Assembly: GCF_044324785.1 (NCBI RefSeq)
Contig: NZ_CP172127.1
DNA: 64,000 nt
From: Escherichia coli
Lineage (GTDB): Bacteria; Pseudomonadota; Gammaproteobacteria; Enterobacterales; Enterobacteriaceae
Direction: 5' to 3' (one strand)
In this document: piece after piece, positions 1 through 49,500 of the stretch
Position numbering within the stretch: position 1 is the first letter of the stretch
How the letters are laid out: each line of letters opens with the position of its first letter
The notes under the pieces: generated by a model
Told to the model about the DNA's origin: nothing
The model's database searches: none
What the model saw: the letters and a program-made list of their open reading frames with translations, nothing else
Translations under genes and position numbers: made by a program

Positions 1-650
1 GTTTCTGGTGCGTTTATGGCGTGATATGCCCCCCGCTTTGCTGAACCTGTCAGGAGTCTTTTTTCACCATGTGAGGTAATAGTCTGTGCTGCTGTTACTG
101 CGCCGGATTTATCCACCAGCGCCAGCAACAGAGATCCATCGGGCAACACGGGGAATGTAAAATCACCTACCCCTTTCGCAACCAGATAATCAGATTTGCC
201 GTTTACAGCCTTTCTGCGCATGTCATCAAACTGACGGGAAAACGTATCCCGTCTTTGTTGTTCGTCCTTCTCTGCCCTTTTCAGGCGCTCCTGTTCGCGT
301 CGCTGGCGCTCGGTTTCCAGTTGTTCCCGTTTCTGGCTGGTGGCTTCTGGTGTTTCCGTTGTCCGGTAATCAATACCCAGAACATCAGCGGCAAGAAGCG
401 CCGCCTCTGTTGTGTCGCAGTTATTTACGCGTTTAATTAAATCCAGCCCATCACCAGCGCCGCACTGATTACAGATGAAGCTACCGCGCCCGTTGTCATC
501 GAACCGGAATCGATCTTTGCCCCCACATGCAGGGCAGGGAGCATGACGGCGCGGAGAGTCAGGGACATTTATGTTCAGGCAGCCCAGCACATGAGGCCAG
601 TTGTTTTCAGACGCACTGATAACCTGACGGATAAGATCAATGTTTCGCAT
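1..650 (-). CDS. P4-family DNA primase, N-terminal part only (gene continues beyond window start)
   Basis: Manual translation of the minus strand from ATG at 650-648 gives MRNIDLIRQVISASENNWPHVLGCLNINVPDSPRRHAPCPACGGKDRFRFDDNGRGSFICNQCGAGDGLDLIKRV...; the CPxCGGxDRFRF...CNQCGxGDG pattern is the zinc-ribbon of P4 alpha/TraC-type primases. No stop before position 1. Confidence 0.6.
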   Translation of the reverse strand, partial: MRNIDLIRQVISASENNWPHVLGCLNINVPDSPRRHAPCPACGGKDRFRFDDNGRGSFICNQCGAGDGLDLIKRVNNCDTTEAALLAADVLGIDYRTTETPEATSQKREQLETERQRREQERLKRAEKDEQQRRDTFSRQFDDMRRKAVNGKSDYLVAKGVGDFTFPVLPDGSLLLALVDKSGAVTAAQTITSHGEKRLLTGSAKRGAYHAINAPE

Positions 651-1008
651 CACCGTACCCCACGTGGTCTATAGCGTTTGCGATATGGCTAACCAGCATC
701 TGCCACTTGGTTATTCCGTAATCAGTCAGCATGCCATCATTGTTTAGCCACATATCAAATTCAGCGGTTGTCGCAAGTTTCCACTTATCGCCGTGGACAG
801 TCCTCATTGCTGGGTACATGAATGCGCAAATCAGATCACAAACATCTGACGGCTTCAGAGATGTAGTAATGGTGCGTCCCTCTGGCGTCTGAATTGCCAT
901 TTTCTCTTCACCAGTAGAATGAAGGTTATGAATCCACACAGCACCAGCAATCTTTGCCACCTGCTCTCCGATTGCGGAGCTAAGCGCCATTTCTGCATTT
1001 TCACGCAT
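637..1008 (-). CDS. hypothetical protein (mobile element, 123 aa)
   Basis: ORF in same-strand tightly packed gene string; start/stop overlaps with neighbours suggest an operon. No recognisable motif. Confidence 0.45.
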   Translation of the reverse strand: MRENAEMALSSAIGEQVAKIAGAVWIHNLHSTGEEKMAIQTPEGRTITTSLKPSDVCDLICAFMYPAMRTVHGDKWKLATTAEFDMWLNNDGMLTDYGITKWQMLVSHIANAIDHVGYGDAKH

Positions 1009-1342
1009 GAGAACCTCCCGCTACAGTTGCGCCCATGTCATTAACCATGCTTTGCCATATCTCACGCCCGACGTCAGTCAATCCGTCCTTAGTGACGCAA
1101 CGTTCAAGAAGCTCGATCCCCACGGTTTCCCACTGCGGGTAGAACACTTTCATGGCTGCCAGTGTGTAGCTATCGATCAGGCTGCGAACGCCTTTTACTC
1201 CATTGACGATTTCCACACGGACGGCCTCGCCGTCCGCATCAACCATGAAATAGTCCCCGCCGCTGGTGGAGGTAATGTGGTTATACAGTGCCGACGCATA
1301 CTTATTTGCCAGCGCATTCAGTCGGAAATTTTTAGTAATCAT
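1001..1342 (-). CDS. hypothetical protein (mobile element, 113 aa)
   Basis: ORF overlapping the downstream ORF start by 8 nt, typical of translational coupling. No recognisable motif. Confidence 0.45.
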   Translation of the reverse strand: MITKNFRLNALANKYASALYNHITSTSGGDYFMVDADGEAVRVEIVNGVKGVRSLIDSYTLAAMKVFYPQWETVGIELLERCVTKDGLTDVGREIWQSMVNDMGATVAGGSHA

Positions 1343-1352
1343 GGCTCCATCC

Positions 1353-1955
1353 TCAGTGCGTCACTGGTTCCGCTGGCATGCCGTTTTCATTCAGTTCAGC
1401 TATAAAGCTGTTGTGAAGTTCAGCAAGCGTTTCACGCCCAAATGGAGTCAGTGCTCCTTGTTCCACATCCATCATGGCTCTGTAGAAAATGATGGCGCGT
1501 TCTGTGCCAGACTCGATGCCAAAACGTTCTATCATCGCGCCCTCAATGTTGTTTGCCATAGCGAGGCGCTCTGCTACTGGATACAGCGGCATGGCGACGA
1601 TGCCGTTGGAATAAACAGCCACTTCGGAAGGATTGCCAGTATCATCAATGATGCTGACAGTGCCGTTTTCCTCTCTCATTTCCAGCATGAATACTGTTGC
1701 GATCAGCCATCTCCACATAATGACGTTATGCTGTGATGTGTAATCGAAATATCCCTGGTTGCCGCCATCGGCAATAGCGAGATGTATTGACATACCTTCA
1801 TCTGGTTTATCGTCATAATCCCCGGCATCCAGACGATTTACGGCATCAATATATGAGATGGCCTCAACGCGTTCTGTCATGCCATCGTTGCTGCGGTACA
1901 TGATGTTTACGCCGTCAGGCGTTGCTTCTGCATGGAAAGTTAAGAAATTATTCAT
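1353..1955 (-). CDS. hypothetical protein (mobile element, about 200 aa)
   Basis: ORF 1353-2060 trimmed to the ATG at 1955-1953 (MNNFLTFHAEATPDG...) which lies 2 nt after the stop of the upstream 73-aa ORF; longer start would overlap that gene. Confidence 0.4.
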   Translation of the reverse strand: MNNFLTFHAEATPDGVNIMYRSNDGMTERVEAISYIDAVNRLDAGDYDDKPDEGMSIHLAIADGGNQGYFDYTSQHNVIMWRWLIATVFMLEMREENGTVSIIDDTGNPSEVAVYSNGIVAMPLYPVAERLAMANNIEGAMIERFGIESGTERAIIFYRAMMDVEQGALTPFGRETLAELHNSFIAELNENGMPAEPVTH

Positions 1956-2169
1956 GTTTCGCTTCGCCTGAATGATTCTGTAACTCATATTTGCCCAACA
2001 ATTCGTCCGCTTCCTGAATAGCTTCTGGTACGCCATTGAGCAGTGACATAACCGCGCCAATCATTAACTTGTCTCTGTTGCTGGGGCTGGCCCCTTCAAG
2101 CCAGAACCCTAAAACAGTCTGAACCTGTTCGATGCGACATTGCGCTTCAATGAGCTGGATGTTGGTCAT
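1948..2169 (-). CDS. hypothetical small protein (73 aa)
   Basis: ORF in operon-like array, start overlaps upstream ORF stop (2166-2169). Confidence 0.4.
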   Translation of the reverse strand: MTNIQLIEAQCRIEQVQTVLGFWLEGASPSNRDKLMIGAVMSLLNGVPEAIQEADELLGKYELQNHSGEAKHE

Positions 2170-2429
2170 TTCGCACTCTCCACATCGATTAAACCGATAT
2201 CTATCAGGGAGGTAACTTTTTGTAGCCAGCTATTGATTACTGTCGCCTGTTCCCCTCCCACCGAGGGAACAATCTCATTCATCACATGAACCAGACCTGT
2301 GCGCGCTCTGGTAAGCCGTTCAGTCGCGCAATCTGCGGGAGTGAATGTGTCTGGATATGGCTCTTCACGCCCCAGCAATGATTCAATTTCCAGCTCACAC
2401 GGATGACGATAAATTAAGTTGATATTCAT
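2166..2429 (-). CDS. hypothetical small protein (87 aa)
   Basis: ORF in operon-like array; 4-nt overlap with upstream ORF. Confidence 0.4.
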   Translation of the reverse strand: MNINLIYRHPCELEIESLLGREEPYPDTFTPADCATERLTRARTGLVHVMNEIVPSVGGEQATVINSWLQKVTSLIDIGLIDVESAK

Positions 2430-2620
2430 TTTTCACCCCCAAGAATTACCAGCTCGGCACGGGCATCGTTAACCAAAGATGAGCACGCTTTAATCGCATC
2501 CACGACATCAGCAGCGTCCATTTCTTCAGCCGAAAGACTGACAGCAACCAGGACAGCCGCTGCTTGCTCGATTAATTGAAGTGCGGACGTAAGGCGAGGG
2601 GTATTAATTGAGTTATTCAT
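2426..2620 (-). CDS. hypothetical small protein (about 64 aa)
   Basis: ORF 2426-2677 trimmed to ATG at 2620 ([10 protein letters not shown]...) preceded by a G-rich Shine-Dalgarno-like stretch. Confidence 0.35.
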   Translation of the reverse strand: MNNSINTPRLTSALQLIEQAAAVLVAVSLSAEEMDAADVVDAIKACSSLVNDARAELVILGGEK

Positions 2621-3680
2621 TGGTTGCCCCCGTTTTTCCTGGCATTTCGCCACCTTCCAGCAGGAAATGAACGTCACGAACGGCGAGATCCAATATCGCG
2701 AGTAACGCCTTCAGTCTTTCGTCTCGTGAGGGAGAGTTGCTCACCAGAATGTCGTTAATCACTTCTGTCAGTGTGATGATCTGGCTTGTGCGTTCGAGGG
2801 GATCCATATGCACATCGTAGGTTTTAATCATGAGCCACCTCCATGCGGATACGACCAGCAAAAAAGCAGACGTGATCGCGCACCAGAGAACGGCGAGCAT
2901 CGCGTTCAGACTCGGCAGCAATATGATGAATTTTGGCGGTAATTGTCGGGCAATCGCGGCGAACTGCGGCGATAATCCAGATAAATTGCGGTTTTTGGGT
3001 AGGGGTAGTAGCCAGCATGTGGCAGCCTCCATTCGATAGCATGTAACGCTACCACCGGAAACGCCAATTTCGCTGGTGGTAGCCCAGACAGGGTTGGCGT
3101 AACCGGCTCGAATGGATACCGGCGCTTCCGAAGAAGCCCCTGCCTGAGCCACCATTGATTGACAAAGGCGCTGGATTATACACCAACGCCCAAAAAATGG
3201 GTGAGTCAGACCTACGACATAAAAAAAGACGCTCGGCGCGTCATATGTCGCCATTCGATTTACCAGGACGCCAATCCCGGCACCCGTTTTATGAGGTGCC
3301 TTATAACCATAAACCGTGTTGCCGCATAACGGCAAGCTCTTTTTTATGGACTCCGAAAACTCGCTATTGGAAGCACCAGATGCACAGTACATCGCGCTCA
3401 TTTCGTTAACGTCACGCACGTGGACGAATGTTTTTGTGGAGTCACTACACGAGCGGAAGACATCATCTACGACCAGAAATTTTCTGGCGCAGCCGCTGAC
3501 CTTCTCAACGCTAACACCATCGACCGTAATTTCTGACATAGTTAAGGCATCCGCTCCCACCACCAGAAAATGATAAACTTTGCTTGTATCTGCTGTATTA
3601 ATGCCAGACTTTGCTGTCATATTGCTGGATTTTGGCGACATACCTGCCAGTGAAAATGTCTTCTTCTGGACGGTTAGCAT
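2613..3680 (-). CDS. hypothetical protein; gene structure uncertain (355-aa ORF, possibly two genes)
   Basis: Single uninterrupted ORF with a GGAGG Shine-Dalgarno 7 nt before its ATG at 3680; however a second strong GGAGGTG ribosome-binding site precedes an internal ATG at 2831 and the middle of the ORF has a W/C-rich composition atypical of real protein. Confidence 0.3.
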
Positions 3681-3856
3681 TTGTTAACCTCCGCGAACTC
3701 CTTCATGAAACGTGCCAGCGGTTGTACGCATGGCGATTGATACCCGTCGCGATAAAACGTCACTCGGTTGTGAGACACGCTTTCGACAGTAACGAGTGCT
3801 CCGTGGGCATCTTTGTAGCGTTTTTGAGGTTGTGGTGTTCCTGTCGGCTTAAACAT
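3674..3856 (-). CDS. hypothetical small protein (about 60 aa)
   Basis: ORF 3674-3943 trimmed to internal ATG (MFKPTGTPQPQK...) so that it does not run deep into the upstream gene; stop abuts the next ORF start. Confidence 0.3.
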   Translation of the reverse strand: MFKPTGTPQPQKRYKDAHGALVTVESVSHNRVTFYRDGYQSPCVQPLARFMKEFAEVNKC

Positions 3857-4682
3857 GGACCGCCTCCAGACGCTTGGCGAGCCAGCGTTGCGACAGGCGG
3901 GTGAGTTCTCCTTTGCGCTGCTCATATTCCATGCCCATATCAATTAACGTGATATTGGTGCTTTCGAGATATGAGAGGTGCTCAAGCTGTTCTGCGTTCA
4001 TATGGTCGCGAGGTTCGCCAGAATAGCCATTTATCCGCGCCCACTGCTTAGCAGTTAGCCCACCAAGAACGATACGAGAAATCATATTGCTCTCGTTTGT
4101 GTAGTGGTGTTGCTGCGTCGTTTTCCCCTGCTCGGCACGGGCCATATTCAGCGCATCGCACATTGGCTTAAAGTTGTTTGCGGCACTAATACGGGCTTTT
4201 AGCTGGCGACGATAGCGGGCGGCGATTTCAGGCACGCTACGCTGTAATTCTTCCTCGCACTGGATGAAATAACGACGGATAGCGCGACCCTGATCATTGC
4301 GTTCGATCATTGCCAGTTCTTTCGCCATTCCGACACTTAACAGATAGTCTTTGCCGGGTCTGCCAGACTGCTTAATCTTGCTGTAAGCCGCGCCATTCGG
4401 GCTTTTCCCCAAATTTGGGGAAATTGTTTTATGGACTGAGTAATCGTGCCCAATGGTGAAGTCATATTCAGAGATGCGATCAGTGATCCATGTAGAGAAG
4501 TCTTTTCCCACGCCCAACGCTTTGTGTAACGCTTTTGCGCTAACAATATTGGTTTCACGCCCACCGATATGACCAGGAATAACCGGGACAATTGCGGCAA
4601 ATTCATTACCGTTAATTGTGCCCAGAGAGGCGTTCAGATGAGGGGCGGCCTCAGAAATTAATCTGCTTTTTTCGATGTTCAT
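3849..4682 (-). CDS. phage antirepressor-like protein (AntA N-terminal / KilA-C-like C-terminal)
   Basis: 277-aa ORF; sequence features reminiscent of prophage antirepressor families (…AKALHKALGVGKDFSTWITDRI… and C-terminal …ELAMIERNDQGRAIRRYFIQCEEEL…). Family call from memory, not searched. Confidence 0.5.
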   Translation of the reverse strand: MNIEKSRLISEAAPHLNASLGTINGNEFAAIVPVIPGHIGGRETNIVSAKALHKALGVGKDFSTWITDRISEYDFTIGHDYSVHKTISPNLGKSPNGAAYSKIKQSGRPGKDYLLSVGMAKELAMIERNDQGRAIRRYFIQCEEELQRSVPEIAARYRRQLKARISAANNFKPMCDALNMARAEQGKTTQQHHYTNESNMISRIVLGGLTAKQWARINGYSGEPRDHMNAEQLEHLSYLESTNITLIDMGMEYEQRKGELTRLSQRWLAKRLEAVHV

Positions 4683-4694
4683 TTTCAGTCTCCG

Positions 4695-5126
4695 TTAGGC
4701 GGCGTTAAACGCGTCCGGGTAGAGTTTCAGAATGTCGGCAATTTCCTGCTGAGAAAGTCCGTTGTGATCATTTATGTTCGCAAGATGGTTAACATGAGTG
4801 ATCACTTTCAGAACATCACCACGGCAGGAGAAACGGTAGCGGAGGTGTGTTCCGATACCATCAGGATTCTTTTCGTCGATACGCTCCAGAATGATTCCAA
4901 GCTGGCGTTCTAACTCTGTTGCATAGTTACGACCAGAAGACAGACGGCAGTAGCGAAGAATGTCATTTTCTGTCCATCCCTCTATACCAGTACGCAGCAT
5001 ATAGACTCTGGCACGATGTTTTTTCGGTGTGCGCTTTGGTGCTTGAAGGGATTTTTTCAGGGGCGTAACATCAGACACGCGAATATCTGAATTAGCCGCC
5101 TGTAATGGGCGGTTTTTCTTTTCCAT
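4695..5126 (-). CDS. hypothetical protein (mobile element, 143 aa), basic N-terminus
   Basis: ORF immediately downstream of alpA-like gene with start/stop overlap at 5126. Confidence 0.45.
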   Translation of the reverse strand: MEKKNRPLQAANSDIRVSDVTPLKKSLQAPKRTPKKHRARVYMLRTGIEGWTENDILRYCRLSSGRNYATELERQLGIILERIDEKNPDGIGTHLRYRFSCRGDVLKVITHVNHLANINDHNGLSQQEIADILKLYPDAFNAA

Positions 5127-5329
5127 CAGGCCACCTTCCCGCGGCGTTCTGCCAGCCAGTTGTGAATCTCAACCGCATCAAACGCAGTTATTTTTTCTCC
5201 CAGCTTTACTGGACGTGGTAGTGAACCGTTTCTTACTTTACGGTCGATGGTGGATACACTAACGCCCAGCAATTCAGCCAGGCGAAAGCGTCTGATATAG
5301 CCTTTTGTAGGGATAGTGTCGATGTTCAT
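5126..5329 (-). CDS. alpA: AlpA-family prophage transcriptional regulator / excisionase-like HTH protein
   Basis: 67-aa ORF MNIDTIPTKGYIRRFRLAELLGVSVSTIDRKVRNGSLPRPVKLGEKITAFDAVEIHNWL...; size and HTH pattern match AlpA/Vis-like proteins of P4/CP4-type elements. Confidence 0.7.
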   Translation of the reverse strand: MNIDTIPTKGYIRRFRLAELLGVSVSTIDRKVRNGSLPRPVKLGEKITAFDAVEIHNWLAERRGKVA

Positions 5330-5435
5330 GATTCCCGTAACCTCTTAGCGATAGTTGTTGCTTCGTTACGAGAAATCTAGCTGTATAGATATACAATGAA
5401 AAGGTACTGTAATTTTGCAGTACCTCTATAGTAAG

Positions 5436-6386
5436 TTAACTATCCACTTTGCCATTTGCCGCAGATCGTAGATGTTTAAGAATTACATCTTCATTAGTTA
5501 TCATAAGTGGTGGAACTTCGTCTAAATGACGAACAAGACAGTCACGCCACTTCTCAGGGCTTATTTCTTTCCTTTCTCCCCTGCATTCATTTGGATACTT
5601 ACTAAGTATATAAATTGCAGATTTTAATAGTTTCTCCCTATTGACTGCGTACCGTTCGGCACGTTTATTAACTTTTAGCGTATTTATATCATTGGATAAC
5701 TTGTTTGCGGATGGTTTGTGCATGGGTCTGTCATAAATATATTTTCCTCCATTTATAAGAAGATTGTATTCATAGTCAGTTATATACATTTTGTTTCGGC
5801 TTATTTCATACCAGCCGTCAATATAAAAAGCTCCGATTTCATAATTATTCGATTTGCTAAACTCGTCACATCTCGGAGGTATCAGTTCGCATACAGAGAT
5901 CTCCCAATCATCCCATTCTGATAGCTCCCGCTCATCGTTATCTATGAACGCAGGCGGAATTGCTAATAGACCGCTCCATCTTTCGATATCTCTTTCATCC
6001 TTCCCAACATTGTATCGCTCTATAACTGAGAAATGTTCTGATTTGTATGAAAACCTCATAAAATACATATAGTTATCGCTATTTTTATAATCAAGTGATG
6101 ATAAGCCATATGATTCGAGATTATCTGCCTTATTGCTCAGATCAAGGAGATAATTCTCATGTGCTGCTTTTGTATCTATATGAAAAATACTATCTGTTTC
6201 AACTTTAAGTAATTCTGGCTCGGCATCTTCATTTTTTGGGTAATGGTAAAACAATTCAATAGGTGGAATTTTTATACATATTTCTAAAACCCCAATTGCT
6301 GCATAGTGTATTAAATCGGATACTTCACATCCGGCCAGTTTGGCTGCTTTATCCAAAGAATAATATTTATGCGCAGGTAATTTCAT
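5436..6386 (-). CDS. hypothetical cargo protein (316 aa), AT-rich, between integrase and alpA
   Basis: Long ORF with markedly AT-rich codon usage compared with flanking genes; N-terminus has an HTH-like stretch (SLDKAAKLAGCEVSDLIHYAAIG); acidic, Y/N/K-rich remainder without recognisable catalytic motif. Confidence 0.55.
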   Translation of the reverse strand: MKLPAHKYYSLDKAAKLAGCEVSDLIHYAAIGVLEICIKIPPIELFYHYPKNEDAEPELLKVETDSIFHIDTKAAHENYLLDLSNKADNLESYGLSSLDYKNSDNYMYFMRFSYKSEHFSVIERYNVGKDERDIERWSGLLAIPPAFIDNDERELSEWDDWEISVCELIPPRCDEFSKSNNYEIGAFYIDGWYEISRNKMYITDYEYNLLINGGKYIYDRPMHKPSANKLSNDINTLKVNKRAERYAVNREKLLKSAIYILSKYPNECRGERKEISPEKWRDCLVRHLDEVPPLMITNEDVILKHLRSAANGKVDS

Positions 6387-6404
6387 TATGAATCTTTCCT
6401 CTCA

Positions 6405-7658
6405 TCATGCTCTGATTGGCGTTACGTTGTAGTCTTTTCCGCTTTCCAGTGCCACCAGCAGATCTGCCCACTGTGCTAGTGCTGCTTTACGCTCATCAAA
6501 ATACTGATGACGGTTATAAATCCCCTCTACGCCCTTAATGCGATGATTGAGGCATCGTTCCGCCACGACAGGATCAACACCCAATGCTGCTAAATGAGTA
6601 CGTGCGGTGCGTCGGAAGTCGTGAATCGTGAAATTAGGCACATCCGGAATTTCGGCGCGAACCTTAGCCAGTGCTACGGGTAAAGTGCTTTCCTGAATAT
6701 GTGGGATCATTCTGTTTTGCATCTTCCTGGCCGGAAGCACCCATGCGCTATTACATGAAAAGGTGTGTAGCTCTCTCAACCATTCAACGGCTGGGGAAGG
6801 TAGAGGTATATCAATAGGGTCTCCGTTTTTGCTGCGTTCTTCCGGCAAATGCCATACCGCACCATCTAAATCAAACTCTTCCCATCGTGCGGCGCATAAC
6901 TCCATCTTACGAACGCATAGTGCCAGCAATAGTTTAAATGTCAGTTCGTTTTGGCGGCTGAATCCTTTTGCGGTGCGCATAGCCTCGAATAGTCTGATAA
7001 GCTCATCGCGAGTTAGCCAACGGTCGCGGGAAACCTCTTTACCACCAGCATCAGATACTTCAAACGCTGAACAAGGGTTTATCTCCAGAGCGTGGCGTTT
7101 TATCCCATAGTCAAAGATACGGCGTGTCCAGCGCAATACATCTGTTGCTATCGTTGGTGCTCCTCGGTCAACGATACCTTTCAACATGTCGTCAATGTGG
7201 CGTGGCTTAACGTCCTCTACCTTCATATGCCCAATGCAGGGGTTAATATCCTTATCAATTCTCCGGCGAAGGATATCGGGATGTTTCCATCTCGGAAGTA
7301 TCTGGCGCTCGAAGTATTCGGAGGCCAGATCTGAAACACGCATGGCGTTTTTCTCAGCCTCCATTTTTGCCAGTGCTTCAGCTTTTCGTTCCTGTTTCTC
7401 TGCTGCTACGTCATAGCCAAGAGCAACTCTGGCTGACAGCTCTTTTGCTGTTTCTCTGGCTTTTGATAGTGACAGTTCGGAGTAAGAGCCTATAACCATA
7501 GCCCGCTGCTTTCCTGCGAGCTTATAGCGGAATCGCCAGAACGGGACTGTGTAGTTTTTGGGGTAGCAAATATAAAGGCCGTTGCCGTCTGCCTTGCCAT
7601 CAAATCTGTCTCCCGCCTTTATCCATGCGCGGATCTGCATATCTGTGAGTTTTGGCAT
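6405..7658 (-). CDS. int: tyrosine site-specific integrase, P4-type
   Basis: ORF 6405-7742 trimmed to MPKLTDMQIRAWIKAGDRFDG... (typical P4-integrase N-terminus); C-terminal catalytic region contains ...HDFRRTARTHLAALGV... and ...GIYNRHQY... (R/H-x-x-R/Y signature). Confidence 0.85.
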   Translation of the reverse strand: MPKLTDMQIRAWIKAGDRFDGKADGNGLYICYPKNYTVPFWRFRYKLAGKQRAMVIGSYSELSLSKARETAKELSARVALGYDVAAEKQERKAEALAKMEAEKNAMRVSDLASEYFERQILPRWKHPDILRRRIDKDINPCIGHMKVEDVKPRHIDDMLKGIVDRGAPTIATDVLRWTRRIFDYGIKRHALEINPCSAFEVSDAGGKEVSRDRWLTRDELIRLFEAMRTAKGFSRQNELTFKLLLALCVRKMELCAARWEEFDLDGAVWHLPEERSKNGDPIDIPLPSPAVEWLRELHTFSCNSAWVLPARKMQNRMIPHIQESTLPVALAKVRAEIPDVPNFTIHDFRRTARTHLAALGVDPVVAERCLNHRIKGVEGIYNRHQYFDERKAALAQWADLLVALESGKDYNVTPIRA

Positions 7659-7686
7659 TGCGAATACCTGAATATCGAATATGGGT

Positions 7687-7738
7687 GTGTACATAAAGCA
7701 ATGTACATGAAAGTCATTATGTACACCTCTATGTACAC
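7687..7738. promoter_or_regulatory. four direct copies of ATGTACA-like motif just upstream of int: candidate integrase arm-type binding sites / att region
   Basis: gtgtacat (7687-7694), atgtacatg (7701-7709), atgtacac (7719-7726), atgtacac (7731-7738) visible directly in sequence. Confidence 0.35.
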
Positions 7739-7783
7739 GCATATTGTGCGCTTTGTTGCGTCGTTATGATAGCTCATGATAAC

Positions 7784-7820
7784 AAAAAAGCCCGACATTT
7801 CGCGGGCTTTGTGGTTTTTT
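7784..7820. terminator. bidirectional rho-independent terminator downstream of yicC
   Basis: aaaaaagcccg-acatttcg-cgggctttgtggtttttt: GC stem flanked by A-run and T-run. Confidence 0.5.
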
Positions 7821-7846
7821 GCTGCTTGGTGATTTTTACTGATAGC

Positions 7847-8710
7847 TTATTCGATATTCTGGATCTGCTCGCGCATCTGCTCAATCAACACTTTCAGCTC
7901 GATGGCGGAGTTTGTCACTTCGGCATTGATAGACTTCGAAGCAAGAGTGTTCGACTCGCGGTTGAACTCCTGCATCATAAAGTCCAGACGACGGCCAACC
8001 GCTTCTTTTTTCTTCAGAATGTTGTAGGTCTCTTTGACATGCGCTTCGAGGCGATCCAGTTCTTCGGCAACGTCAATTCGTTGTGCCAGCAGAACCAACT
8101 CCTGCTCCAGACGGTTGTTTTCCAGTTGCACCTGAGCATCTTCCAGCTTCGCGACCAGACGCTCACGCTGCCATTGCAGGATTTCCGGCATATGGGCGCG
8201 GACTTTGACCACTTCGGCGGTGACGCCTTCCAGACGCTGCTCGATCAATGCTTTCAGCGCCTGACCTTCGGTTTCGCGCGCGACGATAAAGTCGTCCAGC
8301 GTACCATCCAACGCCGCGAGAATTTCAGCGGCAATCGCGTCGAGATCCTGCTCCTGGGCTGCCATCACGCCCGGCCAGCGTAGAATATCAACCGGGTTGA
8401 TTTCCCCTTCGTCACTCTGCATTTTTACCCAGTTCGCGGCAGTTACCAGCTGTTTAGCCAGTTTTTCGTTAAGGATCAGCTCACCTTGTGCGCTAACATC
8501 TGGCTCATAACGCAGGGTACATTCCACTTTACCGCGCGTCAGGCGAGAACGAATACGCTCGCGAACGACAGGTTCAAGGCTACGGAACTGCTCCGGCAGA
8601 CGAAAGTAAGTTTCCAGATAACGCTGGTTTACCGAGCGCATTTCCCAGGTTGCGCTCCCCCATTCACCCTTGATTTCACGCCGGGCGTAGGCGGTCATAC
8701 TGCGGATCAT
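7847..8710 (-). CDS. yicC: YicC family stress-induced protein
   Basis: 287-aa ORF MIRSMTAYARREIKGEWGSATWEMRSVNQRYLETYFRLPEQFR... recognised as YicC; conserved position next to rph. Confidence 0.9.
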   Translation of the reverse strand: MIRSMTAYARREIKGEWGSATWEMRSVNQRYLETYFRLPEQFRSLEPVVRERIRSRLTRGKVECTLRYEPDVSAQGELILNEKLAKQLVTAANWVKMQSDEGEINPVDILRWPGVMAAQEQDLDAIAAEILAALDGTLDDFIVARETEGQALKALIEQRLEGVTAEVVKVRAHMPEILQWQRERLVAKLEDAQVQLENNRLEQELVLLAQRIDVAEELDRLEAHVKETYNILKKKEAVGRRLDFMMQEFNRESNTLASKSINAEVTNSAIELKVLIEQMREQIQNIE

Positions 8711-8836
8711 AGACGTTCCTGTTTATAAAAGGAGAGGTGGAAGGATTATAGCCATCGATGCCTTGTCAGGATAGGAATAACCGCCGGAAGTCCGTATAAT
8801 GCGCAGCCACATTTGTTTCAAGCCGGAGATTTCAAT

Positions 8837-9553
8837 ATGCGTCCAGCAGGCCGTAGCAATAATCAGGTGCGTCCCGTTACCCTGACTCGTAACTATACAA
8901 AACATGCAGAAGGCTCGGTGCTGGTCGAATTTGGCGATACCAAAGTATTGTGTACCGCCTCTATTGAAGAAGGCGTGCCGCGCTTCCTGAAAGGTCAGGG
9001 CCAGGGCTGGATCACCGCAGAGTACGGCATGCTGCCACGTTCTACCCACACCCGTAACGCGCGTGAAGCGGCGAAAGGTAAGCAGGGTGGACGCACCATG
9101 GAAATCCAGCGTCTGATCGCCCGTGCTCTTCGCGCGGCAGTAGATTTGAAAGCGCTGGGTGAGTTCACTATTACGCTGGACTGCGACGTGCTTCAGGCTG
9201 ATGGTGGCACGCGTACCGCGTCGATTACGGGTGCCTGCGTGGCGCTGGCAGATGCGCTACAGAAGCTGGTGGAAAACGGCAAGCTGAAAACCAACCCGAT
9301 GAAAGGGATGGTAGCCGCGGTTTCTGTCGGGATTGTGAACGGCGAAGCGGTTTGCGATCTGGAATACGTTGAAGACTCAGCCGCAGAGACCGACATGAAC
9401 GTAGTGATGACCGAAGACGGGCGCATCATTGAAGTGCAGGGGACGGCAGAAGGCGAGCCGTTCACCCATGAAGAGTTACTCACCTTGTTGGCGCTGGCCC
9501 GAGGGGGAATCGAATCCATTGTAGCGACGCAGAAGGCGGCGCTGGCAAACTGA
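8837..9553 (+). CDS. rph: ribonuclease PH (full length)
   Basis: ORF trimmed to [42 protein letters not shown]...; 238 aa, intact C-terminus. Confidence 0.9.
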
Positions 9554-9560
9554 TTTTTAA

Positions 9561-9586
9561 GGCGACTGATGAGTCGCCTTTTTTTT
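9561..9586 (+). terminator. rph-pyrE intercistronic attenuator hairpin with T8 tract
   Basis: ggcgact-gatg-agtcgcc followed by tttttttt, read directly; matches the known UTP-sensitive pyrE attenuator location. Confidence 0.7.
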
Positions 9587-9618
9587 GTCTGTAGAAAAGT
9601 AAGATGAGGAGCGAAGGC

Positions 9619-10260
9619 ATGAAACCATATCAGCGCCAGTTTATTGAATTTGCGCTTAGCAAGCAGGTGTTAAAGTTTGGCGAGTTTACGCTGAAGTCCG
9701 GGCGCAAAAGCCCCTATTTCTTCAACGCCGGGCTGTTTAATACCGGGCGCGATCTGGCACTGTTAGGCCGTTTTTACGCTGAAGCATTGGTGGATTCCGG
9801 CATTGAGTTCGATCTGCTGTTTGGCCCTGCTTACAAAGGGATTCCGATTGCCACCACAACTGCCGTGGCGCTGGCGGAGCATCATGACCTGGACCTGCCG
9901 TACTGCTTTAACCGCAAAGAAGCAAAAGACCACGGTGAAGGCGGCAATCTGGTCGGTAGCGCGTTACAAGGACGCGTAATGCTGGTGGATGATGTGATCA
10001 CCGCCGGAACGGCGATTCGCGAGTCGATGGAAATTATTCAGGCCAATGGCGCGACGCTTGCTGGCGTGTTGATTTCGCTCGATCGTCAGGAACGGGGGCG
10101 CGGCGAGATTTCGGCAATTCAGGAAGTTGAGCGTGATTACAACTGCAAAGTGATCTCTATCATCACCCTGAAAGACCTGATTGCTTACCTGGAAGAGAAG
10201 CCGGAAATGGCGGAACATCTGGCGGCGGTTAAGGCCTATCGCGAAGAGTTTGGCGTTTAA
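9619..10260 (+). CDS. pyrE: orotate phosphoribosyltransferase
   Basis: [40 protein letters not shown]...; PRTase motif [13 protein letters not shown]. Confidence 0.95.
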
Positions 10261-10295
10261 AAATATGCGCTGTGCAGGGTTTTTGCTGTGCGCAG

Positions 10296-10326
10296 CGTGA
10301 TGCGCTTTAAGATATCGTGTTAATCT
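10296..10326 (+). promoter_or_regulatory. possible retron promoter (extended -10 TGt-TAATCT, weak -35)
   Basis: TG at 10318-10319 followed by taatct at 10321-10326, about 6 nt upstream of the predicted msr 5' end at 10332. Weak match; could also be read-through from pyrE. Confidence 0.25.
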
Positions 10327-10331
10327 GCTTT

Positions 10332-10525
10332 CGCCAGCAGTGGCAATAGCGTTTCCGGCCTTTTGTGCCGGGAGGGTCGGCGAGTCGCCGACTTAACGCC
10401 AGTAGTATGTCCATATACCCAAAGTCGCTTCATTGTACCTGAGTACGCTTCGCGTACGTCGCGCTGACGCGCTCAGTACAGTTACGCGCCTTCGGGATGG
10501 TTTAATGGTATTGCCGCTGTTGGCG
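10332..10525 (+). ncRNA. msr-msd: retron msr-msd non-coding RNA (template and primer for msDNA), bounded by a1/a2 inverted repeats
   Basis: a1 10332-10348 (cgccagcagtggcaata) pairs with a2 10509-10525 (tattgccgctgttggcg) as a 17-bp RNA duplex with two G-U wobbles; unpaired G at 10349 in the context AUAG-C is the candidate branching G; msr hairpins ccggc-cttttgt-gccgg (10355-10371) and gtcggcg-agt-cgccgac (10376-10392); msd palindromic block 10434-10480. Confidence 0.6.
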
Positions 10526-10557
10526 CCTCTTTTGGCCGCCGTGATGTGGAGAGTGGA

Positions 10558-11517
10558 ATGGATGCTACCCGGATAACCCTTCTGGCGCTCGATTTGTTCG
10601 GCTCGCCGGGCTGGAGCGCCGATAAAGAAATACAGCGGCTGTATGCGCTCAGTAATCATGCCGGACGCCATTACCGACGCATTATTCTTTCTAAACGCCA
10701 CGGTGGTCAGCGGCTGGTGTTAGCCCCTGATTACTTGCTCAAAACCGTACAGCGCAACATTCTTAAGAACGTTCTTTCACAATTTCCGCTTTCCCCTTTT
10801 GCTACAGCCTACCGACCAGGTTGCCCAATTGTCAGCAACGCGCAGCCTCACAGCCAACAGCCACAAATACTGAAACTCGATATCGAAAACTTTTTCGATA
10901 GTATTAGCTGGTTACAGGTCTGGCGTGTGTTTCGCCAGGCCCAGTTGCCACGTAATGTGGTAACCATGCTGACCTGGATTTGTTGTTATAACGACGCGTT
11001 ACCGCAGGGGGCACCAACTTCGCCAGCCATTTCCAATCTTGTGATGCGCTGTTTTGATGAGTGCATCGGGGCATGGTGCCAGGCACGAGGAATTACCTAC
11101 ACCCGCTACTGCGATGACATGACTTTTTCAGGTCACTTCAATGCCCGCCAGGTTAAAAATAAAGTGTGCGGATTGTTAGCGGAGATGGGCCTGAGCCTCA
11201 ATCAACGCAAAAGCTCCCTGATAGCTGCCTGTAAGCGCCAGCAGGTAACCGGGATTGTTGTTAATCACAAACCACAGCTTGCCCGCGAAGCGCGGCGGGC
11301 GCTGCGTCAGGAAGTACACTTATGCCAAAAATATGGCGTCATTTCGCATCTTAGTCGTCGTGGTGAACTTGATCCTTCATGCGATCTCCATGCACAGGCA
11401 ACGGCGTATCTTTATGCTTTGCAGGGAAGAATAAACTGGCTATTGCAAATCAATCCTGAGGATGAGGCCTTTAAACAGGCGAGGGAAAGTGTAAAGCGAA
11501 TGCTGTTGGCATGGTAA
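10558..11517 (+). CDS. ret: retron-type reverse transcriptase (319 aa)
   Basis: Start at ATG 10558 preceded by GGAGAG; contains RT motifs ...LPQGAPTSPAISNL... and ...ITYTRYCDDMTFSG... (YxDD box); size typical of retron RTs with no extra fused domain. Confidence 0.9.
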   Translation: MDATRITLLALDLFGSPGWSADKEIQRLYALSNHAGRHYRRIILSKRHGGQRLVLAPDYLLKTVQRNILKNVLSQFPLSPFATAYRPGCPIVSNAQPHSQQPQILKLDIENFFDSISWLQVWRVFRQAQLPRNVVTMLTWICCYNDALPQGAPTSPAISNLVMRCFDECIGAWCQARGITYTRYCDDMTFSGHFNARQVKNKVCGLLAEMGLSLNQRKSSLIAACKRQQVTGIVVNHKPQLAREARRALRQEVHLCQKYGVISHLSRRGELDPSCDLHAQATAYLYALQGRINWLLQINPEDEAFKQARESVKRMLLAW

Positions 11518-11525
11518 GAAAAGCG

Positions 11526-11547
11526 TCAGGCAGACGTTTCTGCCTGA
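11526..11547. terminator. hairpin between convergent RT and slmA genes
   Basis: tcaggcaga-cgtt-tctgcctga perfect 9-bp stem in the 43-bp gap. Confidence 0.45.
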
Positions 11548-11560
11548 ACGTTTGGGAGAA

Positions 11561-12157
11561 TTACTGCAACTGTGCGGCAATTAGCGGCCAGCGGGCGTCA
11601 AAATCATCCGTCGGGCGGTATTTAAACTCGCTGCGGACAAAGCGTGACAGCATACCTTCACAGAAGGCCAGGATCTGGCTTGCCAGCAGGGTTTCATCGG
11701 TGGTGTAACCTTCACCCTCACGCATTCTCTTTTCGCGCAATACCTGACGCAACTGCGCTTCAATACGCTCGAACAGCTGGTTGATGCGCCCTTGCAGGCG
11801 ATCCTGTTCAAACATTAGTGCATGACCAGTGAGGATGCGGGTCAGGCCAGGATTACGCTCACCAAAACCGAGAAGCAGCAACACAATCAGACGCAGGCGC
11901 GCTGTGGTGTCCTTCTCATCTTTCAGAATCAGATTGATGCGAGTAATCAGGCTATCTTCGATAAACTCAATCAGGCTATCGAACATGCGGGTCTTACTGG
12001 GGAAGTGGCGATACAGTGCCGCTTCGGAAACGCCGACAGAGGCGGCCAGTTTTGCCGTCGTGATACGTTGGCTTCCATCGCTGGATTCCAGCATCAGCGC
12101 CAGAGACTGAAGTATTTCCTCGCGACGGTTCCTTTTCGCAGTTTGTTTTTCTGCCAT
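11561..12157 (-). CDS. slmA: nucleoid occlusion factor SlmA (TetR family)
   Basis: ORF trimmed to [52 protein letters not shown]... Confidence 0.9.
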
Positions 12158-12263
12158 GTTACAAAATACCCCTGAAAATAAGCACTTGCCAGGCGGCACC
12201 CACGCTATGACCGCAAACGAAATGTTTGCGGCTATGTTATGACGTTATTCGGATGCGTATGTG

Positions 12264-12722
12264 TTACTGACGACCAGAGTGACCAAAGCCGCCTTCACCG
12301 CGGTCGGTGGCGTCGAAATCTTCCACCAGATTAAATTCAGCCTGTACTACCGGAACAAAAATCATCTGGGCGATGCGTTCGCCAGGTTGAATGGTGAAGC
12401 TGTCCTGACCACGGTTCCACACGGAAATCATCAACTGGCCCTGATAGTCGGAATCGATCAATCCTACCAGGTTACCAAGCACGATACCGTGCTTATGTCC
12501 CAATCCGGAGCGCGGCAGCATCATTGCCGCCAGTGAAGGATCGGCAATATGAATCGCCAGCCCGGTCGGAACCAGCGTAGTGTCACCCGGAGCCAGTTCT
12601 ACGGCGTCGTCGAGACAGGCACGCAGGTCAAGTCCGGCAGAGCCAGAGGTGGCATAAGTCGGGAGCGGAAATTCCTTCCCAACGCGCGGGTCCAGAATCT
12701 TAACGTCGATTTTTTTCATCAT
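12264..12722 (-). CDS. dut: dUTP diphosphatase
   Basis: [37 protein letters not shown]... recognised. Confidence 0.9.
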
Positions 12723-13920
12723 AACGGGTCACGATCTCGTCGAGTAATAATTGGCCAAGGAGCTCTTTGCGCTCAAGCGGTAAGACTTTATCTCCGTCCT
12801 GCCAGAAAAGGTGTAATGCGTTGTTGTCGCTGTTAAATCCTTGAGTTGGCTGGGAAACATCGTTCGCGCAGATCAGATCAAGGTTTTTACGGATACGTTT
12901 TTGCCGGGCGTATTCTTCCACATTATTTGTTTCGGCGGCAAATCCAACGACGTAGGGTCGATGGTCTTTTAGTGCGGCAACGCCTGCGACGATATCGGGG
13001 TTTTTAACCATTTTTATTGTTAATTCATCACCCTGCGTGGCCTGCTTTTTGATTTTCTCTGGGGCCACGGTAGCTGCGCGATAATCCGCCACGGCGGCGC
13101 AACCGATAAAAATATTTTGCTGCTGTACAGAAGCATTCACGGCCGCTTCCATTTCCAGCGCAGTCATCACATCAACACGTTTAACAAACGGTGGCGTCGG
13201 TAGTGAAACCGGACCTGATACCAGCGTGACGTTCGCGCCACGACGGGCAGCGGCGGCGGCGATAGCAAAACCCATCTTGCCTGAGCTGTGATTAGAGATA
13301 TAACGCACCGGATCGAGCGGTTCACGCGTCGGGCCGGCGGTAATCATAATGCTCAGATGTTTCAGGTCGTTGACGGGCGAAAAATGCGCTACCGCCATAT
13401 CAACAATGGTTAACGGATCGAGCATTCGCCCAGGGCCGATATCACCACAAGCCTGACTGCCACTGTCTGGCCCCCAGATGAGCAAACCACGGGAAGCAAG
13501 CACCTCTAAATTATGCTGCGTGGCAGCGGCACGGTACATCTGCTGGTTCATGGCGGGGAGCACGGCTACAGGCGCAGGAGTGGCCAGACAAATCGTCGAT
13601 ACCAGATCATTCGCCATTCCGGCAGCAACACGGGCAATCAAATCTGCCGTGGCAGGGGCGAGAATCACTAAATCAGCCCATTTACCCAGCTCAATATGGC
13701 CCATTGCGGCTTCGGCTGCCGGGTCCAGCAGACTGTCGGAAACGGGATACCCAGAAACCGCCTGCAAGCTAAGTGGGGTGATAAAGGCTTTTGCCGCTTC
13801 GGTCATGGCTACGCGGACGTCGGCCCCGCGCTCGCGCAAACGACGCACCAGTTCAGGGGTTTTATAGGCAGCAATACCGCCGCTAACGCCGAGAACGATT
13901 TTTTTACCGGCCAGGCTCAT
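12700..13920 (-). CDS. coaBC: bifunctional phosphopantothenoylcysteine decarboxylase / synthetase
   Basis: ORF trimmed to [37 protein letters not shown]... Confidence 0.9.
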
Positions 13921-18424: not shown

Positions 18425-18474
18425 CAGTGCGGTATCAGTATTCAGGTAGCTGTTGAGCCTGGGGCGGTAGCGTG
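18425..18474 (+). promoter_or_regulatory. JUMPStart element containing ops site (GGCGGTAGCGTG) for RfaH-dependent antitermination of the waaQ operon
   Basis: cagtgcggtatcagtattcaggtagctgttgagcctggggcggtagcgtg read directly; ops 12-mer at 18463-18474. Confidence 0.8.
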
Positions 18475-46564: not shown

Positions 46565-49500
46565 TTACCACTGAATACCGGCACCGAGTGCGGCGGAGTA
46601 TTCACCCTGGCTATTGGTACTACCTTGTAATTTGTAGACCCAACGACCATTGGCGCTCACCATCGACACACCTAAAGCAACAGCCGACTCACCGTTGTAA
46701 GTACCGCCACCAATAGAGGCCATACTGGCACCTGGAGTGTAAGCCTGCGGCAGACCGGTCATTGCCATTGCAGAAGCGATACCACCGCTCAACTTGCTTT
46801 CGGTTTTGGACAGTTTGTTATCCATCTCAACCATCCGCTGATCGGTGTATTGCTTCGTTTCCTGCACGCTTTGCTTCAGCTGCGCATAGTTCACTGCGTC
46901 GTTGTTGTTCACGCCAGCGGAGACGTTGCTGATGCGAGTCGTACCGCCATTACCACCACCGAGAGTGATGTTGCTGTAGTCTACAGAGCCATCAGCTTTG
47001 GTGTCGTAACGAACGCCGCCTGCCTCAGAAGACTTCAGCTGCGAAACGTTAACCGCATCGGTGGCATTAACACCTGCAGCAACGTTGGTGATACGACGCT
47101 GGTTGGTAGAAGAACCCACAGAGATGGTATTTTCTTCGTTGGCCACGGAGCCTGTACCCAGCGCGACGCTGTTGTCAGCGGCAGCAATGGAACCAGAACC
47201 AATCGCAACACTGTCTTTACCCTGCGCGTTGGCATCTACGCCATCGGTGTTGGTCTTGAAGTATTTGGTGCTACCGGTGGTTACGATATCGCCAATGCCG
47301 TTTTCGATATTGGTAACGCGAGTATCCAGATTCGTCACCTGATTGTTCAGGTTAGTAATGCTCTGGGTATTCTGGGAAACCTGCGCGTCCGTTACTTTCA
47401 ACTGACCCACGTTGACCGCATCGGTATCAGCCGAACCAGCCGCGACGTTGGTGATCTGACGTTGACCGTCTTCACTGCCGACAGAGAACTCACCCACAGA
47501 GTTCTGCGGTGCATCCATGTTGTAGGCGGTGTAGCCAGTTTGAGCACCACGAGTCGTCTGTGAGCCATTACCCATAGCAATGCTGTTTGCATGGTTTGCA
47601 CGCGCGTTGCTACCAATAGCAATACCGTTGATCGCATCAGACAGAACCAGAGTGTTCAGGCCGATACCAATGCCCGCATTACCATTAACGATAGTATTCG
47701 CGCCCATTGCCAGCGAGTCAGTACCTACTGCCAGTGAATCTTCTTCCGTTGAATTAGCGTGGAAGTATTTAGTCGGCGTGGTTGCAACTGCACCAATGGC
47801 ATTTTGCAACTGGCGAACCGTAACGGCGTCATGGGCTTCGGAACCATCGGCTACGTTGATGATTTGACGATATTTACCATCATCACCAATAGACAACGCA
47901 CCAAGTAGTTCGCCATCCGTGGTGTCATAACCAATCACAACACCTTCTTCCGACACGCTGGTGTCACGAGAACCTTTAACTATTACACGGCTGGAAACAG
48001 AACTGCTACCCAGGGCGATACCCGTATCAACGTCGCTGTAGCTGTCCTGACCGATGACTACACTGCTATGGCCTTCGGCAACAGCGTTATAACCCACGGC
48101 CACGCTGCTATCGCCTTTGGCAACAGAGTCATAACCGACAGCGGTAGAGCCGATACCAACTGCGCTGGCGTCGTTGAACGCTAAGCCCTTATCGTTGGTA
48201 CGCACATAGTTAATACCTGCACCATTTTCGTTGATATAGGATTCGCTGGTGTCACCGGCAAGCTGATTGATGATTTCGCTGTTCTGCTGGATCATCATAT
48301 TGGTGTTAAACAGCTGAGAACCGTTGATGGCGTCGGTACTGCCTTCGCCAATGTTACCATCAGCAACGTTTGTGATGATGCTGGCCTTGCCGTCATGGCT
48401 GGCGTTGTAGGCACCTGCACCGTCATTGGCCGTTGCATCCCACAGCAGAGCGTTATCGTCGAGCGCATCCAGGGCGTCACCGACGTTGTTGTACTCGGCA
48501 TTTGCAATGGTGTAACTCGGCGCAGTGATAGTGCCGTCAGCGTTAACTTCTGCGTCACCCCCCAGGGCATCGGCAATGTATTTGTTGGTGGTATACAGTT
48601 GTGAACCGTTAATGGCATCGCTGCTGGTGGCAGAGATTGCACCGTTAGCGACGTTAGTGATTACACTGGCTGTTTTATCTTTTCCGTGAGCGGCGCTAAA
48701 TGCACCATTACCATCATTGGCTGTAGCATCCCACAGCAGGGCGTCATCCAGCGTGGTATCGATCGCTTCCAGCGCGTCACCGACGTTGCTGTAACTGCCG
48801 CCAGCGATGGCATAAGTCGGTGCGGTGATTGTGCCGTCAGCATTGACTTCTGCGTCACCACCCAGAGTATCGGCAATGTACTTGCTGGTGTCATAGAGCT
48901 GTGAGCCGTTAATAGCGTCGCTGCTGGTAGAGGAAATTGCACCGTCTGCAACATTAGTAATGATGCTGGCCATGTTATCTTTTCCGCGACCGGCGCTAAA
49001 CGCACCGTCACCGCCCTTGGCGGTCGCATCCCAGAGTAGGGCGTCACCGAGTGATGTGCTAAATGACGTGTTAATGGCTGCCAGAGCCTCACCGACGTTA
49101 TTGTAGTCAGTACCACCAATAGTGTAGGTTGGCCCGGTTAATACACCCGCATCGCTGATATCAGCACCACCGCCAAGGTATGACGTAAATGAATCAGCTA
49201 AGCCATAAAGTTGTGAGCCATTAATGGCGTCAGTGCTGTCAGAGGATACTGTGCCTGCCAGTAAGTTGGTGATTTTGCTGTCAGTACCGTTGGTGCCGTG
49301 TTTGGCACTGAATGCACCCGCCGTAGCATTCCACAGCAGAGAGTCATCACCGAGACTGTCAACAGCATCACTCAGGTTGTTGATATTGGTAGTGTTGGTG
49401 GTGATATTGGCGGTATTGGTCGCCACGTTATCGTTGGTGGTTTTCAGCTGAGAGCCGTTAACCGCGTCGGTGCTGCCAGCCGCCAGTTCACCGGCTTTGA

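Follow-up and report, generated by a model that had tools for sequence, protein, structure and literature searches.

A probable EcCIMP1-type phage-inducible chromosomal island with a yicC-specific integration module in Escherichia coli

Introduction

Two Gram-negative phage-inducible chromosomal islands (PICIs), EcCIRM13514 and CfCIP10159, are listed at the yicC–dinD locus (Fillol-Salom et al. 2018, PMC6092414, Table S1), the former with the 12-bp repeat GAGCAGATTCAA, and yicC is, at its 3′ end, likewise the target of the mobilizable genomic island (MGI) MGIVflInd1 and of SGI1-like islands (PMC8409611). Another PICI, EcCIMP1, is a 19,963-bp element of E. coli MP1 that is excised only with the P22-like helper phage Kapi1, that needs its own alpA and int, and that is transduced by Kapi1 (Pick, Stadel & Raivio 2025, PMC11773190). 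Here we analyse a stretch of 64,000 nucleotides from E. coli (RefSeq assembly GCF_044324785.1, contig NZ_CP172127.1; hereafter the window), of which positions 1–7867 cover the integrase end, 7.9 kb long, of an island situated between yicC and dinD.

We consider it highly probable that the complete element is a Gram-negative PICI of about 20 kb and of the EcCIMP1 type, in which a yicC-specific integration module has replaced the tRNA-Thr module. A sequence-only reading of the same DNA had called it a P4-family element and had implied that its position was new, an implication that gives way to the two published descriptions of yicC–dinD as a PICI site and of the yicC 3′ end as a target of MGI and SGI1-like islands. 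Published descriptions exist of the element class, of the probable helper type and of yicC as the attachment site, and the locus therefore carries little weight as a discovery. It is instructive as an example of PICIs that swap integration modules, here an EcCIMP1 backbone joined to an int/alpA module of the EcCIRM13514 type, and as an example of a satellite that hits a protein gene without damaging it, by way of a replacement gene end and a terminator.

Relation to EcCIMP1 and EcCIRM13514

Positions 1–5136 of the window are 96.9% identical in nucleotide sequence to EcCIMP1 (locus L007), and the full element of the related strain CRE1540 (locus L001) is 98.1% identical to it over 14.6 kb. The homology ends at 5136, a short way into the 3′ end of alpA; alpA, the 316-aa gene that lies beyond it, int and the attachment site are unrelated to EcCIMP1 at the DNA level, and the proteins retain 36% (AlpA) and 29% (Int) identity to their EcCIMP1 counterparts. 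The EcCIRM13514 integrase, by contrast, shares 89.7% identity with Int. Taken together, the identity of the backbone to EcCIMP1 and that of the integrase to EcCIRM13514 thus indicate an EcCIMP1 backbone carrying an integration module of the EcCIRM13514 type.

What is shared with EcCIMP1 is the antirepressor, the Ash/Icd/C4 region, the small open reading frames (ORFs) and the primase, all at 96.9–98.1% nucleotide identity, as well as the gene order, the size of about 20 kb and, in close relatives, the late genes for gp14-, gp7-, gp20- and gp16-like proteins. The antirepressor/Ash/primase backbone that marks EcCIMP1-like elements is therefore present, whereas the IntS-type integrase and the tRNA-Thr site are not: EcCIMP1 has its own IntS-type integrase at tRNA-Thr (proA–yagU) with the core TCCTATTATC, whereas the site used here is in yicC. 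EcCIMP1 also has no 316-aa gene between its int and alpA, and its distal end carries alpA_1 and a gene of the pRiA4b ORF-3 family where the present element type has an ImmA/IrrE peptidase gene.

EcCIRM13514 and CfCIP10159 share the yicC–dinD attachment locus with the element (PMC6092414, Table S1), and EcCIRM13514 shares in addition the layout of attR, with its arm sites, terminator from the element, substitute yicC end and TGAATCTG core. It differs in its Bro, replication and accessory modules, which hold Rha/AntA, a ‘DNA primase family protein’, SSB, ProQ/FinO and PerC, in its length of 11.9 kb, in the absence of ejection-protein genes, and in a supplied yicC end that encodes NVE*. The layout of the island fits the four-zone plan of enterobacterial PICIs, namely Integration, Bro, Replication and Late (Tommasini et al., 10.1101/2022.07.18.500453).

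The complete element in relatives and its distribution

Among 5,426 complete E. coli genomes, the collection used throughout, 125 contain at least 80% of window positions 1–9000. In both such genomes inspected, CRE1540 (99.1% identical) and CH10508 (locus L003), an insert of about 20 kb fills the yicC–dinD spacer. Since the block recurs in 125 genomes and sits between yicC and dinD in both of those inspected, it is no chance arrangement. Beyond the primase, these two islands encode homologues of P22 gp14, gp7 and gp20, a gp16-like protein containing a lytic transglycosylase domain, an ImmA/IrrE peptidase and a PerC regulator. No phage protein of the collection exceeds 52% identity to the gp16-like protein; the best matches are in P22-like podoviruses such as CUS-3, HK620 and epsilon34. 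The gene is therefore better understood as a long-resident satellite gene than as a fresh prophage fragment.

DNA related to int and attR, down to 67% identity, occurs in 554 of the 5,426 genomes (about 10%), so that about one in ten complete E. coli genomes has a member of this integrase group; carriers include O157:H7 and O145:H28, both inspected at this site. In each of the seven E. coli loci inspected (CRE1540, CH10508, RM13514, O157:H7 ECP17-46, XJ5.2, ET881 and 83972), and in one Yersinia locus, the integrase gene adjoins the yicC stop codon. The seven E. coli loci all hold PICI-like islands, of 9–20 kb, as expected of a dedicated site that is not used by prophages, which is one of the traits by which PICIs are recognized. 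The target gene itself is shared with MGI and SGI1-like islands. Integrases 78–93% identical are found in Yersinia, Citrobacter, Klebsiella, Salmonella, Serratia, Pectobacterium, Erwinia, Pantoea and other genera, and the Yersinia enterocolitica locus repeats the order of the window, with yicC followed by int, a gene for 318 aa, alpA, a gene for 139 aa and antA. The XJ5.2 island (locus L006) has at its distal end, beside the native dinD, a second full-length gene annotated as dinD (9013–9837 of that locus).

The attachment site within yicC

In K-12, yicC and dinD are separated by a 220-bp spacer without an insert, in agreement with the statement in the sequence-only reading that dinD lies directly next to yicC. 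An ARAGORN scan of all 64 kb detected neither a tRNA nor a tmRNA, and Rfam found no RNA family at the int–yicC junction. A tRNA or tmRNA at the junction is thus ruled out as a candidate; a search of positions 1–13000 with Rfam in E-value mode gave only Trp_leader (E = 0.7), and this match fell on the terminator. Because there is neither a tRNA or tmRNA nor another RNA at the junction, and because the K-12 spacer is only 220 bp long, the original observation is confirmed: an integrative element of co-oriented minus-strand genes, with an integrase of P4-type Pfam architecture, lies beside yicC with no tRNA at the junction, and K-12 lacks the block at this position.

The structure of the att sites was worked out by comparing the attL/attR pairs of six occupied strains with K-12. 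The cleanest pair is that of ET881 (locus L008), in which attL runs from native TTATTCGATG through TTCTGAATCTG into AATATTG of the element, and attR runs from CTACTCAATA of the element through TTCTGAATCTG into CTCGCG of yicC. Because this pair brackets it on both sides, the identity block can be set at TTCTGAATCTG (11 bp), which is the reverse complement of CAGATTCAGAA, that is, of yicC codons 282–285, and which overlaps the 12-bp repeat published for EcCIRM13514. Of the two options offered in the sequence-only reading, an intergenic site and a site at the 3′ end of a protein gene, the second thus applies. The direct repeat that it had expected near 7740–7790 lies instead at 7857–7867, inside yicC, where the attR identity block and crossover region of the window reads TTCTGGATCTG. 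This differs from the consensus by one substitution, G at 7862, which is synonymous in yicC; L001, L003 and all other att pairs examined have A.

Comparison with K-12 puts the junction at or inside the yicC stop codon, and identity to K-12 on its left stops at that codon. Element-derived DNA runs to about 7856, inside the yicC reading frame. The A at 7856, which is G in K-12, is common to the window, L001 and L003, the latter two being the other inspected carriers of the element type, and other elements bring clearly different yicC ends, among them TTACTCCACATTT and CTACTCAATA. The element has therefore contributed the last 10 nt of yicC (7847–7856, minus strand), which comprise the final base of codon 285, codons 286–287 and the stop codon, together with the spacer and the rho-independent terminator found by terminator scan at 7787–7810 (minus strand), which now terminates yicC. 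The latter had been taken for the native yicC terminator, but in L001 and L003 the native K-12 terminator sits at the dinD-side junction. Because the element brings the last 10 nt with the stop codon, plus a terminator, YicC remains intact and full length after insertion: the target gene (7847–8710, minus strand) encodes 287 aa, of which 286 are identical to K-12 YicC, and the protein ends in QIQNIE, as it does in K-12.

A crossover at the stop codon itself (TTA/TTATTC) was considered and rejected, because the attR sequences of RM13514, O157 and ET881 are non-native between the stop codon and TGAATCTG. The similar-looking sequences ATTATGTACACC..TATGTACACG that are present at both ends of the element were likewise set aside as the direct repeat, since they represent probable arm-type sites and not the crossover. 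The motif TRTGTACAY has four matches in the 64-kb window where 1.4 would be expected by chance, and all four fall within 7686–7738, at 7686–7695 (palindromic), 7718–7726 and 7730–7738, with ATGTACAT at 7701–7708. Related ATGTACA/TGTACAT motifs cluster at the element ends in L001 and L003, with two tandem copies at the dinD-side end, the sole exception being one stray interior match at L003 position 23383. The motif is conserved in RM13514, O157:H7, ET881 and the Y. enterocolitica element, and we regard the cluster as candidate arm-type sites of the integrase. The int start is placed at 7658 (MPKLTDMQ...), following the RefSeq annotation of relatives; the ATG at 7742 merely opens the longest ORF, and the extension of int up to it overlaps the arm sites. 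With int directly 3′ of the yicC end and the identity block within yicC, the integrase falls into a yicC-specific group, an assignment based on the six attL/attR pairs, locus L009, Yersinia and the published repeat.

Alternative explanations

The ‘P4-family’ label would, if taken literally, make the element a genuine P4-like satellite, that is, a parasite of P2-like phages that redirects capsid size through Sid and Psu but uses a non-tRNA attachment site. P4 itself integrates at tRNA-Leu (leuX), whereas the target here is a protein gene. The likeness is considerable, since the two share the P4-type integrase architecture, an AlpA/Vis-type regulator, a unidirectional early operon ending in a primase-helicase and an immunity RNA inside a Bro-network gene (the C4 and isrK RNAs being the equivalents of CI and seqA), and RefSeq annotates Ash- and Icd-like genes. 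It does not extend beyond int, alpA and the C4/isrK RNAs, however, and the backbone is the one that is 97–98% identical to the PICI EcCIMP1. Neither in the window nor in the full L001 element did PHROG and NCBIfam searches match any ORF to the Psu, Sid, Delta or Epsilon families. The primase belongs to another family, with Zn-ribbon, Toprim and DUF927 domains and no NCBIfam match to the P4-family (alpha) primase, unlike that of the XJ5.2 element at the same site, which is annotated as ‘P4 family’; and the late genes of relatives are P22-like, in contrast to the P2-dependent late functions of P4. A P4-like satellite has, by definition, no fewer than five out of seven components (Moura de Sousa & Rocha 2021, PMC8628076), of which only int and alpA are present here, and we judge this explanation to be extremely improbable. 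Hardly any probability attaches, too, to an MGI or SGI1-like integrative mobilizable element that would be moved by SXT/R391 or IncC conjugative elements. MGIVflInd1 and IEEcoMOD1 do use a tyrosine recombinase for site-specific integration into the same target gene at the same gene end (PMC8409611), but such islands carry oriT, mob and tra-related genes and RdfM, are mobilized by conjugation and have no satellite genes. Here the gene content is that of a phage satellite, mobI, mpsA, traG, traN, sgaC and rdfM were neither annotated nor detected in L001, L003 or the ORFs of the window, and EcCIMP1, with 97–98% nucleotide identity over the shared backbone, moves by phage transduction.

The remaining rival, an immobile and decayed remnant of a temperate P22-like or other prophage, has several points in its favour: tools of the PHASTER type label such inserts ‘incomplete prophage’, partial phage sequences between yicC and dinD have been described (PMC10050402), relatives carry phage-like ejection genes, and five of the six attL junctions compared have small deletions at their pseudo-ends. 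Decay is nevertheless difficult to reconcile with a gene set of about 20 kb that is 98% identical between strains and with the experimentally mobile EcCIMP1, or with window ORFs that are all intact, with no ragged gene loss. Capsid, portal, terminase, tail and lysis genes are absent, the divergence of the gp16-like protein from all phage proteins argues against a recent phage fragment, and precise excision apparently still takes place, to judge by empty sites whose scars match those of attL. A prophage remnant is accordingly very unlikely, and where an ‘incomplete prophage’ is called between yicC and dinD, a satellite of the kind described here is the likely explanation, which may serve as a warning to annotators.

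Several observations weigh against the assignment to EcCIMP1-type PICIs. Dependence on a helper phage would have to be read across from the 97% identical EcCIMP1 backbone only, and since the alpA promoter region comes with the swapped module, the same helper might not induce this island. Outside the window are attL and the far half of the element. The size of about 20 kb in L001 and L003 exceeds the range of about 12–15 kb given for PICIs, as that of EcCIMP1 does as well, and relatives carry phage structural genes (gp14 for head morphogenesis; gp7, gp20 and gp16 for ejection) that PICIs are supposed to lack; P22-like structural genes are also found in the experimentally validated PICI EcCIMP1. 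The placement of strand exchange within the identity block is a predicted region only, and the G at 7862 could hinder excision through heterology with attL, if attL differs.

On the assignment to EcCIMP1-type PICIs, the life cycle could be envisioned as follows. Int would bind the arm sites and the core, with strand exchange within the identity block, and AlpA would act both as the helper-induced activator and as the recombination directionality factor. In the quiescent state the C4-like RNA would silence the downstream Icd-like and replication genes through the isrK site and a site just inside the Icd-like ORF. Upon induction of a P22-like helper such as Kapi1, the island would excise and replicate with its own primase-helicase, and it would then be packaged in helper capsids with its own diverged gp14-, gp7-, gp20- and gp16-like head and ejection proteins.

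Gene content of the island

All of the island genes described here are present, as judged from Pfam, PHROG and RefSeq relatives; all are co-oriented on the minus strand, and every ORF in the element part of the window is intact. The unidirectional order of integrase, AlpA and replication module (primase) is conserved, which is a further PICI trait listed by Fillol-Salom et al. 2018. As the sequence-only reading had noted, the window cuts the element inside the primase gene: the N-terminal 216 codons of a primase-helicase occupy 1–650 (minus strand) and match PHROG DNA primase families. The full-length homologue of 918 aa is supplied by the 99% identical relative L001 and has in the Pfam annotation a Zn_Ribbon_Prim domain (residues 34–69) followed by Toprim_3 and DUF927. 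Upstream of the primase gene come six conserved small ORFs known from RefSeq relatives (637–1008, 1001–1342, 1353–1955, 1948–2169, 2166–2429 and 2426–2620, all minus strand), with matches to phrog_37628, phrog_1515 and phrog_20558, all of which are families of unknown function.

Next comes a 355-aa ORF at 2613–3680 (minus strand) that RefSeq names ‘ash family protein’ and that belongs to the ‘Bro network’, with matches to PHROG families of transcriptional regulators and repressors; within it, in another frame, lies an ORF that RefSeq names ‘Icd-like’ (2824–3042, minus strand). A small DUF4222 protein (3674–3856, minus strand; RefSeq, phrog_285) is followed by an antirepressor of the AntA/AntB type (3849–4682, minus strand; 277 aa), which matches phrog_5817 and phrog_377 (anti-repressor Ant) at 1e-37, and by a 143-aa protein of unknown function (4695–5126, minus strand), the last gene in common with EcCIMP1, for which NCBIfam, PHROG and other profile searches gave no family match. 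The integration module then comprises an AlpA-family regulator/excisionase of 67 aa (5126–5329, minus strand; Pfam Phage_AlpA, 2.5e-8), cognate to the yicC-type integrase, the 316-aa orphan gene discussed below, and the yicC-specific tyrosine integrase of 417 aa (6405–7658, minus strand), whose Pfam domains Arm-DNA-bind_3, Phage_int_M and Phage_integrase constitute the P4-type architecture.

An RNA immunity module in the Bro region

The models RF01695 and RF01394 are known to detect relatives of P4 CI and seqA in PICIs (Tommasini et al., 10.1101/2022.07.18.500453). In the window, Rfam RF01695 matches a C4-type (P4 CI-like) antisense immunity RNA at 3072–3159 (minus strand) with 79.5 bits against a gathering score of 45, and RF01394 matches an isrK-like RNA, the upstream (seqA-like) target of the C4 RNA, at 3222–3299 (minus strand) with 67.1 bits against a gathering score of 50. 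Both RNAs are contained within the Ash-family ORF. The C4 loop at 3108–3116 is complementary to 3028–3036, just inside the Icd-like ORF (start codon at 3042), and the C4 segment at 3091–3100 is complementary to isrK positions 3268–3277. By family and by predicted pairing, the pair is an RNA immunity system of the P4 CI/seqA/seqC or P1 c4-icd-ant type. The module (3028–3299) had been missed in the sequence-only reading.

In phage P1 the elements of the immI operon are arranged in the order c4-icd-ant. As in P1 and P7, a C4 antisense RNA occurs here along with an antirepressor and an Icd-like ORF, and the C4 loop is complementary to a stretch just inside the latter. The two differ in that the order here is ant, isrK, C4 and icd-like, and in that the operon of P1/P7 belongs to a plasmid prophage whereas the present one belongs to a satellite.

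The 316-aa orphan gene

Between alpA and int lies a gene (5436–6386, minus strand) with a GC content of 0.35–0.39, where the neighbouring DNA has about 0.50, encoding a 316-aa protein with no match in Pfam, NCBIfam, PHROGs or PADLOC. Every one of the homologues lacks a name and comes from Enterobacterales. An N-terminal winged helix resembling those of MerR and Xis is followed by a beta-rich middle and a helical C-terminal part; in an alignment the middle is variable, and a C-terminal stretch of about 75 residues is invariant. An int-adjacent gene of 316–318 aa occupies the same position from E. coli to Yersinia (L012 5367–6323), with a variable central domain. Other islands of the yicC type have unrelated genes of 201–216 aa in the int–alpA slot and EcCIMP1 has none there; the int–alpA gap therefore behaves as a variable accessory slot. 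The 316-aa protein is a putative DNA-binding protein that might, by analogy with Stl from the pathogenicity islands of Staphylococcus aureus (SaPIs), be a helper-sensing regulator, or might have a new anti-phage function.

Scars at the 3′ end of yicC

Across the six attL junctions compared, the native yicC pseudo-end is intact only in ET881. Deletions of 2 nt in RM13514, 9 nt in O157:H7 and 7 nt in CH10508 were found, with further variants in CRE1540 and XJ5.2. Overall, deletions of 2, 5, 7 and 9 nt lie directly left of the crossover block, in attL junctions and in some empty sites. The empty site of CEC01302 (L010 1541–1560) has the 9-nt deletion and a YicC of 284 aa ending in EQIQ*, and that of 13E0780 (L011 1541–1567) has the 2-nt deletion and a G-to-A change, with a YicC of 285 aa ending in EQIQH*. 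In their scars these empty yicC–dinD sites agree with attL in the islands of O157:H7 and O145:H28; no empty site with the 7-nt scar of the L003 type was found at 100% identity among the 5,426 genomes. Conservative recombination explains why attL junctions match scarred empty sites, but it leaves the origin of the deletions unexplained.

The scarred empty sites look like footprints of satellite traffic, and ‘attB drift’ has been mentioned for yicC PICIs (Tommasini et al., 10.1101/2022.07.18.500453). The deletions in the yicC end could come from imprecise or register-shifting strand exchange by this integrase clade, a true ‘attB drift’, and not from ordinary mutation. Taken as a single proposition, that satellite traffic remodels the C-terminus of YicC or else that the 316-aa protein is a helper-sensing regulator or a new anti-phage function, we consider this unlikely, although it deserves some weight.

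Other features of the window

A retron reverse transcriptase gene lies between pyrE and slmA at 10546–11517 (plus strand), with an upstream spacer at 10261–10545, and is RT_Ec107-like according to PADLOC (438 bits). We take it to be the published retron-Ec107 locus. No msr/msd RNA was detected there by Rfam. K-12 and CRE1540 lack the retron, and CH10508 has it; the best matches to the window in the collection are 99.1% identical without the retron and 97.9% identical with it. An ordinary JUMPstart RNA element is found at 18436–18474 (plus strand), upstream of the waaQ (rfaQ) operon for the lipopolysaccharide core. Two further loci are variable in E. coli: an ORF for a trimeric autotransporter adhesin of 1,904 aa with NCBIfam Vomp/Ata/EmaA-type domains (46565–52279, minus strand), between lldP and the mtl genes, and an ORF for a C-terminal RHS core (62030–63961, minus strand), near the right-hand end of the window.

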